From: Escherichia coli
GTDB lineage: Bacteria; Pseudomonadota; Gammaproteobacteria; Enterobacterales; Enterobacteriaceae
NCBI RefSeq assembly: GCF_003334785.1
Contig: NZ_QOWV01000002.1
Length of the DNA stretch: 64,000 bases
Strand: one strand, 5' to 3'
Below are positions 8,752 through 43,305 of this stretch, piece after piece; the stretch's first letter is position 1; every line of letters starts with the position of its first letter. The notes below the pieces were generated by a model, which saw nothing but the letters and a program-made list of their open reading frames with translations, was not told the origin of the DNA and made no database searches. The translations under genes were made by a program, and so were the position numbers.

Positions 8752-8871
8752 AGCGCAAATATTCCCTTGCACAAAACAAAGTGGTAAGTATGCAAAGTGG
8801 GATGGCGCAATTCATTGATGCAGCGCAGTTAAGCAAGATAATCAGAAAGGATTAATGCAAATTAAGAGAAT

Positions 8872-11159: not shown

Positions 11160-12362
11160 TCAGGCAGTCAGGCGGCTCGCGTCTTGCGCGATAACCAGTT
11201 CTTCGTTGGTTGGGATAACCACCGCAGGACGGGTACCTTCTTTGTTGATGAAACCAGATTTGCCGAAACGTGCAGCCAGGTTGCGTTCATGATCAACTTC
11301 AAAGCCCAGCACGCCCAGTTTGCCCAGAGACAGTTCACGAACCATTGCGGCATTTTCACCGATACCACCAGTGAATACAACAGCGTCCAGACGACCATCC
11401 ATCAGCGCAGTGTAGGCACCGATGTATTTCGCCAGGCGGTGGCAGTAAACGTCCATTGCGCGCTTCGCGTCTTCTTTCGTCGCGTAGTTGTCTTCAACAT
11501 AGCGGCAGTCGCTGGTCACTTCGGTCAGACCCAGCAGGCCAGACTCTTTGGTCAGCAGTTTGTTGATTGCGTCAACGCTCATGCCCAGGGTGTCGTGCAG
11601 GTGGAAGATGATCGCCGGATCGATATCACCAGAACGGGTACCCATGACCAGACCTTCCAGCGGGGTCAGGCCCATAGAGGTGTCAACGCATTTACCGTTG
11701 CGGATAGCAGAAACGGAACCACCGTTGCCCAGGTGGCAGGTGATGATGTTCAGTTCTTCTACCGGTTTGTTCAGCATTTTTGCCGCTTCCTGGGTTACAT
11801 AGAAGTGGCTGGTGCCGTGCGCGCCGTAACGACGGATGCCGTGCTCTTTGTACAGGTTGTAAGGCAGGGCGTAGAGGTAAGACTCTTCCGGCATAGTCTG
11901 GTGGAACGCGGTGTCAAATACAGCAACGTTTTTGTCTTTCAGCTGTGGGAAAGATTTCAGAGCTTCTTCGATACCGATCAGGTGAGCCGGGTTGTGCAGC
12001 GGTGCAAAAGAAGCTGCATCTTTGATACCCTGAATAACAGACTCATCGATCACTACGGAGCTGGTATACTTTTCGCCGCCGTGTACGATACGGTGACCGA
12101 TAGCAGTCAGCTGCGCAGACAGTTCTGGTTTTTGTGCCAGAATAGTATTAACGATAAAGTTGAGCGCTTCGCTGTGAGCGGCGCCTGCACCTAAAGCCGC
12201 TTCCTGTTTATTGCCGTCCATTTTCCATTTGATACGTGCTTCGGGCAGGTGGAAACATTCGGCTAAACCAGAAAGGTACTCTTCACCATTTACTGCATCG
12301 ATGATGGCAAATTTCAGTGAAGAACTACCGCAGTTCAGAACCAGTACTAACTTACTCGACAT
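11160..12362 (-). CDS. ackA: Acetate kinase (400 aa)
   Basis: ORF 11160..12362; [21 protein letters not shown]-terminus characteristic of acetate kinase. Confidence 0.97.
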
Positions 12363-12440
12363 GGAAGTACCTATAATTGATACGTGGCTAAAAAAACGTC
12401 AGGGAGCCATAGAGCGTAGCGCATGATGACACCGACATTT

Positions 12441-12454
12441 ATGATTAACATCAT
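12441..12454. promoter_or_regulatory. Candidate FNR/CRP-type palindromic site upstream of ackA
   Basis: aTGAT-TAAC-ATCAt palindrome, about 85 bp upstream of the ackA start codon. Confidence 0.4.
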
Positions 12455-12699
12455 GCACTGCAAATTTTTTTTGCATGATGGAAGAAATATCTTGAGTCTA
12501 TGCCATTTTGCGTAATTTTCAGCCAATGGCATAATGTATATGAATTTGACGACTCAATGAATATGTACTACTTAGGCCTTCAGGCTGCTAAAGGATACCT
12601 GATAGTGGGTATGGAAGACAAAATGTTTTGAACGTTGTCCCGCTGAGTTGTGAATTTGCACAAATTTTTGAATCTTTATATGTGAAGTTGAGGTGAAGC

Positions 12700-13155
12700 A
12701 TGTCAACGCCGGATAATCGTTCTGTTAATTTTTTTAGCTTGTTTCGCCGGGGACAGCATTACTCAAAGACGTGGCCGCTGGAAAAACGCCTTGCCCCGGT
12801 CTTTGTCGAAAATCGCGTTATCAAGATGACGCGTTATGCGATCCGTTTTATGCCGCCGATCGCCGTATTTACTCTCTGCTGGCAGATTGCCCTGGGCGGT
12901 CAGCTTGGGCCGGCAGTTGCCACTGCCCTGTTCGCCTTAAGTTTACCCATGCAGGGATTGTGGTGGCTGGGCAAGCGTTCTGTCACGCCATTACCCCCTG
13001 CAATCCTTAACTGGTTTTATGAAGTTCGCGGTAAATTGCAGGAGTCTGGACAGGTGTTGGCACCCGTTGAAGGCAAGCCTGATTACCAGGCATTAGCTGA
13101 CACGCTTAAGCGCGCCTTCAAACAACTGGATAAAACTTTCCTTGATGATTTGTAA
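12700..13155 (+). CDS. yfbV: UPF0208 inner-membrane protein YfbV (151 aa)
   Basis: ORF 12700..13155, divergent from ackA; followed by hairpin terminator. Confidence 0.85.
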
Positions 13156-43118: not shown

Positions 43119-43305
43119 GGGCTCCTTTTAGTTGCAAAGGTTGTGCTGAATCAAGATGAAAAGAGGCAACTTATTGCTCTGAATATAGTGCGTAAGGAGA
43201 TGAATAAATATCAAAAATCGCTCAATATGCCTGTGTGGGTGGATATATGTAGCGCGGGTTGCGATAACAGGGCAAGTTTCGCCCTGTTTTTAATAATAAG
43301 CAGAG

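Follow-up and report, generated by a model that had tools for sequence, protein, structure and literature searches.

The ackA/yfbV spacer and its FNR-like palindrome

The window analysed, a 64,000-nucleotide stretch of Escherichia coli DNA, carries the acetate kinase gene ackA on its minus strand (11160–12362, from the gene call and the comparison with E. coli), pta further down the same strand, and the divergently encoded yfbV on its plus strand (12700–13155), a gene arrangement that the initial annotation had called correctly. The ackA and yfbV coding sequences are separated by an intergenic spacer of 337 bp. The 461 bases around the site studied here are 100% identical to E. coli chromosomes, and 5425 of 5426 complete E. 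coli genomes contain the spacer at 99% identity or more, between genes annotated as ackA and yfbV. Published positions (x) were converted into window positions (w) by w = 12362 + (2,413,470 − x) for NC_000913.3, in which ackA starts at 2,413,470, and by w = 12362 + (2,411,492 − x) for the U00096.2 numbering of the 2007–2013 papers, in which 2,411,492 is the printed ackA start. Acetate overflow and fermentative ATP production run mainly through the ackA-pta pathway, which also makes acetyl-phosphate, and its anaerobic switch-on is relevant to both physiology and strain engineering.

The palindrome aTGAT-TAAC-ATCAt is located at 12441–12454 (centre 12447.5; ATGATTAACATCAT, or ATGATGTTAATCAT in the ackA direction) and can be read directly from the sequence, as had been noted. 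Compared with the FNR consensus TTGAT-N4-ATCAA, it matches at 8 of 10 positions, with a perfect TGAT-N4-ATCA core and with both outer bases off consensus by an A in place of T (ATGAT...ATCAT). A weight matrix was built from the 63 ChIP-bound 14-mers that the FNR ChIP-seq study tabulates (PMC3688515, Table S6), by which the palindrome scored 11.95 bits, the best match in the 337-bp spacer (runner-up, 6.3 bits) and the third among 63,987 window positions; this score is barely within the range of the training sites, the minimum of which is 11.85 bits. Such a score is expected by chance at 2.7e-5 per position and 0.009 times in the spacer. The published PatSer ln(p) of the ackA site, −8.96, was under the stringent cut-off of −10.75 (PMC3688515). 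The bare TGAT-N4-ATCA occurs twice in the 64-kb window against 1.37 expected and is alone not unusual; conservation, described below, is stronger evidence for the palindrome than the chance statistics.

The palindrome had been described as an FNR/CRP-like site, and a CRP site, or a site common to CRP and FNR, would accord with its TGA-N6-TCA core, which CRP and FNR sites have in common, and with the dyad symmetry that it shares with CRP operators. The two regulators are, however, discriminated by the G:C pair that separates GTGA (CRP) from TTGA (FNR), and both half-sites here are ATGA, lacking the G of GTGA in either half. Placed on the CRP consensus TGTGA-N6-TCACA, the site becomes CATGA-N6-TCATA, which matches at 7 of 10 positions and has A for G in both halves, while the flanking bases preferred by FNR, T at position 5 and A at position 10, are present; in addition, no report of CRP at ackA was found in the literature searched. 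CRP recognition of this site is accordingly considered highly improbable, and the CRP part of the annotation was not upheld.

FNR occupancy at this locus is already on record. In 2007 a ChIP-chip study reported an FNR peak at yfbV/ackA (PMC1802558), and a ChIP-seq peak containing one FNR motif was called in 2013 by all four callers, MOSAiCS, NCIS, CisGenome and CMARRT (PMC3688515). The ChIP-seq centre (2,411,404) and summit (2,411,410) correspond to window positions 12450 and 12444, placing the palindrome within 3–4 bp of the published peak, although ChIP resolution is too coarse to prove which bases are contacted. In the same study, ackA-pta was classed as directly FNR-activated (‘Activated’, Table S8), with aerobic/anaerobic expression ratios of 0.11 for ackA and 0.10 for pta (Table S12), i.e. 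an ∼9-fold increase without oxygen, and sigma-70 occupancy was greater anaerobically (1268 against 5613) (PMC3688515). The earlier reading of an FNR half-site pair, consistent with anaerobic induction of ackA-pta, is thus borne out both by the matrix comparison that it had proposed and by the published ChIP-chip, ChIP-seq and expression data. The palindrome at 12441–12454 is, in other words, an already published FNR site, and since FNR binding and activation of ackA-pta are both in print, this core finding adds nothing new.

A mutational test or direct footprint of the ackA FNR site was not found in the literature searched. The AlignACE motif of the ChIP-chip study, AAAATTTGCAGTGCATGATGTTAA (PMC1802558), gives a different register, TTGCA-GTGC-ATGAT, and this 14-mer was outside the eight best of the spacer, all of which after the first score 6.3 bits or less; because it scores poorly, the palindrome was taken as the site. 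What is added here is modest, namely a better-supported class II geometry (−41.5) and a conserved inverted repeat lying over the operator.

Conservation of the site and geometry of the proximal ackA promoter

For comparison, 80 loci encoding close AckA relatives were fetched. More than 30 Enterobacterales species carry the identical 14-mer, ATGATGTTAATCAT or ATGACGTTAATCAT, in front of ackA; they represent about 20 genera, including Escherichia, Citrobacter, Enterobacter, Kluyvera, Leclercia, Cedecea and Hafnia, and also Serratia, Yersinia, Rahnella, Photorhabdus, Pectobacterium and Brenneria. Erwinia, Pantoea and Budvicia retain the half-sites, (A/G)TGAy-N4-rTCAT, around a different N4, the pattern that would be expected of a dimer operator. 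Outside Enterobacterales, FNR-like sites upstream of ackA did not reach significance except in Photobacterium and a few others, and most Vibrio, Shewanella and Pasteurellaceae loci gave no significant FNR site there, so general conservation is not claimed beyond Enterobacterales. In four Photobacterium species a near-consensus FNR site, TTGATTCAAATTAA (14.8 bits), lies ∼270 nt upstream of ackA, and its score was matched in only 0–4 of 300 shuffles.

The SMRT-Cappable-seq operon table lists ackA-pta start sites on the minus strand at 12406 and 12402 (2,413,426 and 2,413,430 in NC_000913.3), from which a 44-nt leader is transcribed, and further ones at 2,413,333, 2,413,305 and 2,413,246 (window 12499, 12527 and 12586), with none at 2,413,459 (PMC6131387). 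The method captures primary 5′ ends, mapped to NC_000913.3, and the cultures were ordinary aerobic ones; a search of the 2016 Cappable-seq supplement for ackA starts gave no matches. The centre of the palindrome, 2,413,384.5 in NC_000913.3, is 41.5 bp upstream of 2,413,426, or 42.5 bp if the table is 0-based, which leaves an uncertainty of 1 nt on the start coordinates. A −10 hexamer, TACGCT (12413–12418, minus strand), occupies −12 to −7 from the 12406 start, within TGCGCTACGCT, a block that 17 Enterobacteriaceae share without change. In 37 of 40 Enterobacterales loci the site is followed at exactly 22 nt by the start of a TAnnnT hexamer, which is TACGCT in 31 of them, whereas the ATG lies anywhere between 83 and 154 nt from the site; the site is therefore tied to the −10 element and not to the start codon. 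At the −35 position, which a site centred at −41.5 overlaps, stands TAAATG, with one of six matches to TTGACA and so essentially no −35, a weakness typical of class II activator-dependent promoters.

Among the FNR-activated promoters with known start, 19 of 23 have their site at −41.5 ± 4 (PMC3688515). From three independent lines, the mapped start, the −10 hexamer and its fixed spacing across genera, we conclude that the palindrome probably serves FNR as its operator at the proximal ackA-pta promoter (P1), acting in class II position at −41.5, a placement that was not found for ackA in the literature searched. That FNR acts on the 12406 start in particular is what we infer from this geometry, and this start is not strictly FNR-dependent, because it was seen in aerobic cultures. 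Under the class II reading, dimeric [4Fe-4S]-FNR would bind ATGAT-GTTA-ATCAT when oxygen is absent, centred 41.5 (±1) bp upstream of 12406 and overlapping the non-existent −35 (TAAATG), and would recruit sigma-70 RNA polymerase to the conserved −10 TACGCT as at other class II activator-dependent promoters. The alpha C-terminal domain of the polymerase may then dock just upstream, on the A/T tract at −59 to −66, the position that this domain would take upstream of a class II activator.

P1 would in this respect resemble the class II FNR promoters of E. coli with a site at −41.5, in having TTGAT-type inverted half-sites 4 bp apart, a poor −35 under the site with a recognisable −10, and anaerobic, FNR-dependent expression; dmsA, frdA, narG and nrfA are among the FNR-activated operons (PMC3688515). 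It differs from them in that its site is sub-consensus with the outermost bases A/T-swapped, that it is also used in aerobic cultures, that its left half-site doubles as an arm of a conserved inverted repeat, and that its position is annotated as −74.5 in the literature. The class II fit would replace this odd annotation and make ackA an ordinary FNR promoter.

The −74.5 placement comes from Table 1 of PMC3688515, the starts of which were taken from EcoCyc or the genome-wide TSS study of Kim et al. 2012, and it implies a start at window 12373. The site would then act in a class I-like manner on a promoter starting 11 nt before the ATG, and the block TTTTTTTAGCCACGTATCA upstream of ∼12373 is indeed highly conserved. 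The Cappable-seq list, however, has no start at 2,413,459 and does have those at 2,413,426 and 2,413,430, and the candidate −10, TATCAA, is without a −35-like hexamer at workable spacing, CTGACG being merely 14 nt away. Class I activation by FNR or CRP works near −61.5, −71.5, −82.5 and −92.5, so that −74.5 would be ∼3 bp off phase. The fixed spacing between the site and TACGCT across genera would also go unexplained, and we therefore hold action from −74.5 to be quite unlikely, class II action at −41.5 being the preferred reading.

A promoter directed towards yfbV and overlapping the palindrome (ATGACA-17-CATCAT), suggested by a promoter scan and a SELEX paper, was rejected, as its −35 is not conserved and the mapped yfbV starts are instead at 12542 or 12582. 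A further published yfbV start lies at window 12039 on the plus strand (U00096.2 2,411,815), inside the ackA coding sequence, so the yfbV transcript from it is antisense to the ackA 5′ end and crosses the whole regulatory region. On the minus strand, the −10 region at 12411–12420 reads GCTACGCT. This sequence would fit KCTAYRCT, an extended −10 pattern of the sigma-S type in which C stands at −13.

Repeats of the spacer and the inverted repeat over the FNR half-site

Several other symmetric elements had been reported around the palindrome as unexplained. The direct repeat GCATGATG is present at 12421–12428 and 12473–12480, as located before, and a third, inverted copy of the 8-mer (CATCATGC, 12449–12456), which overlaps the left FNR half-site, had been missed. 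The copy at 12421–12428 falls in the −35/−10 spacer of P1 (−22 to −15), and its ‘GCA’ end, which belongs to TGCGCTACGCT, is invariant, while the five other bases vary among genera. In the five informative species in which the middle copy is changed, the upstream copy compensates in five of five and the downstream one in none. With three invariant bases and no compensation, the direct repeat is not a conserved feature, correct as its coordinates are, and an attenuator-like pairing of the middle with the downstream copy was rejected for the same lack of compensation in all five species.

The second element, a palindrome at 12459–12475 (TGCAAATTTTTTTTGCA), was also correctly located but wrongly written as TGCAAA-T8-TTGCA: since the run holds eight T in all, it reads TGCAAA-T5-TTTGCA and measures 17 nt, not 19. 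It is specific to Escherichia and absent from the other genera, and its spacing differs both in E. albertii, in which the run is A6T4, and among E. coli strains, on which grounds a fixed-spacing dimer operator (TyrR-box-like or CytR-like) was rejected; it is probably a by-product of a repeat arm and a homopolymer run. The T8 of the plus strand, A8 in the ackA direction (12465–12472), forms the loop of the inverted repeat described below and lies at −59 to −66 from P1. This loop position retains a tract of A in Enterobacteriaceae and of T in Yersinia and Serratia. The run length is polymorphic in E. coli (A7 in ETEC1702, A8 in most strains and A9 in 30COLEC), and the strains compared differ in nothing else within this part of the spacer.

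The upstream copy of GCATGATG belongs to a perfect 9-nt inverted repeat, CATCATGCA (12449–12457) with TGCATGATG (12472–12480), with 14 nt between the arms. In the ackA direction (minus strand), the upstream arm (CATCATGCA, 12472–12480) holds the second GCATGATG copy and spans −74 to −66 from P1, and the downstream arm (TGCATGATG, 12449–12457) consists of the left FNR half-site and two or three flanking bases. In an alignment of 30 species the arms read CATCATGCC...GGCATGATG, and 84.5% of the cells pair, compared with 16–43% when the partner is slid by 1–3 columns; neither the observed pairing nor the covariation was reached in any of 500 shuffles. Compensatory changes were found at at least three pairs (alignment pairs 16-47, 22-41 and 23-40), with pairing kept through C-G to A-T in Escherichia, C-G to T-A and G-C to C-G in Serratia, and C-G to G-C in one Enterobacter. 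In the five species in which the FNR half-site reads ATGAC for ATGAT, the upstream arm has the matching G, and three more species have a G-T intermediate in the inverted repeat.

By count from the alignment, wobble pairs are far commoner on the ackA-sense strand than on the opposite strand. For the stretch between 12499 and the ATG, the sense RNA has a better fold than its shuffles (z = −2.0), in contrast to the antisense RNA (z = −0.15), and the per-species hairpin z-scores are mostly −2.5 to −5. Judged by these patterns, the inverted repeat looks like a hairpin on the ackA-sense strand, which would form only in transcripts from the upstream starts. It would therefore be isoform-specific, transcribed only from 12499, 12527 and 12586, much like the 5′ UTR stem-loops of multi-promoter enterobacterial mRNAs, with which it also shares G-U intermediates and compensatory changes on the sense strand; unlike those, it has no known family and no U-tract, and one of its arms is a protein-binding half-site. 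The best scores against Rfam 15 covariance models were 14–19 bits, compared with gathering scores of 33–85. An intrinsic terminator at 12449–12480 was rejected, because the hairpin is followed by no U-run on either strand (sense, TTAATCAT; antisense, GGAAGAAA) and a terminator scan of 12300–12760 yielded 0 terminator-like sites. FNR does not need the inverted repeat, since Erwinia, Pantoea and Budvicia have the FNR site, though not the identical 14-mer, without it.

Taken within the one sequence, the repeats are only mildly improbable, each occurring in ∼3% of shuffles: of 2000 dinucleotide shuffles of the spacer, 61 had the 8-mer three times and 54 had at least one perfect 9-nt inverted repeat. 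The GCATGATG pair and TGCAAA-T5-TTTGCA could on this basis be functionless products of chance or slippage, with which the polymorphic T-run length and the lack of conservation of the downstream copy and inner palindrome agree. Chance does not account, however, for an upstream arm that is kept across genera and changes in step with the arm on the FNR side, and we rate this explanation of the repeats as a whole as somewhat unlikely. Of the elements left unexplained before, the upstream GCATGATG copy is thus a real feature, as an arm of the conserved inverted repeat, while the downstream copy and the TGCAAA...TTTGCA palindrome are without a conserved role.

Further constraint on the operator and possible pairing in the ackA leader

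Across many genera the site is invariant at each of its 14 bases, the central GTTA among them, and so is the AAATGTC that comes after it; since such invariance exceeds what FNR recognition needs, something else also constrains this DNA. A second DNA-binding protein overlapping the FNR site, be it ArcA, Fur or another factor, could account for the full invariance of CATGATGTTAATCATAAATGTC, the N4 spacer and AAATGTC being unchanged in more than 25 genera and TGTTA...TGTC resembling ArcA direct repeats. The TGTTA/TGTCx repeats are, however, spaced by 13 bp, whereas ArcA sites follow an 11-bp rule, and neither ackA nor yfbV is present in the ArcA ChIP paper or its 13 supplementary files, for which reasons an ArcA site was rejected; a Fur box is TGAT-A-ATCA, unlike TGAT-N4-ATCA. 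In a comparison by eye with consensus sequences, the Fur box, IHF, NarL heptamers, sigma-54 −24/−12, the TyrR box and CytR half-sites gave no fit in sequence or spacing. Pairing constraints offer another account of the invariance, and on all these grounds a second protein at this place seems very unlikely to us.

Such pairing would involve an invariant block of the ackA 5′ UTR, CTGACGTTTTTTTAGCCACG (12383–12402, minus strand). GTTAA (12449–12445) and AAATGTCGG (12440–12432) are complementary to TTAGC (12391–12387) and CTGACGTTT (12402–12394) in this leader block, respectively, and for the resulting helix of 12432–12449 with 12387–12402, 93% of the cells pair in 31 species, compared with 30–54% in the slid controls. 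Changes consistent with pairing occur at four positions, and most columns never vary. RNAalifold predicted the helix in a 19-sequence Enterobacteriaceae set and predicted no structure for the wider 31-sequence set, so the sequence evidence for this long-range helix is equivocal. After its 3′ strand comes the remainder of a U7 run, which makes an attenuator-like reading conceivable.

The overlap of the operator with the co-varying inverted repeat hints at an RNA-level constraint in the longer leader isoforms. Combining the hairpin with the long-range helix, we tentatively raise the reading that the long ackA leader folds into a conserved RNA structure of which the FNR operator is part, a reading that we still consider fairly unlikely. 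In the long transcripts (from 12499, 12527 and 12586), the left FNR half-site would form the 3′ arm of the hairpin, and the FNR spacer and right flank (GUUAA and AAAUGUCGG) would pair with the leader block (CUGACGUUU...UUAGC), while transcripts from 12406 would contain only the 3′ strand of the long-range helix. If true, the dual constraint on DNA and RNA would explain the invariance of all 14 site bases, and the isoforms would differ in leader structure and thereby in translation, stability or access of Hfq and the sRNA SdhX.

Further features were observed in the spacer and elsewhere in the window. A second perfect 9-nt inverted repeat, TATGCCATT / AATGGCATA (12499–12507 with 12525–12533, 17 nt between the arms), flanks the conserved GCTGAAAATTACGCAAAAT, adjoins the upstream ackA start at ∼12499 and is partly conserved in Enterobacteriaceae. 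We take ackA-pta to belong to the CreBC regulon. CreB binds the cre/blr tag, TTCAC-N6-TTCAC (PMC4689548), and this consensus is matched exactly by TTCAC-CTCAAC-TTCAC at 12682–12697 on the minus strand, directly in front of the yfbV start codon and ∼320 nt upstream of ackA; ACCTCAACTTCAC is conserved in Enterobacteriaceae, and a third TTCAC lies at 12651–12655.

By the FNR matrix, the window contains three more 14-mers of ∼12 bits, TTGATCTTAGTGAA (52041–52054), TTGTGCTGAATCAA (43141–43154) and GTGATTTCTGTCAA (61066–61079), with ∼1.7 matches at this level expected by chance in 64 kb. Just past the end of pta, towards yfcC, TTAATGCAAATTAA (8852–8865) scores 9.8 bits. For yfcC, an FNR peak (2,415,052–2,415,092) and FNR activation have been published (PMC3688515), and the peak maps to window 8762–8802, some 50–100 bp from TTAATGCAAATTAA.
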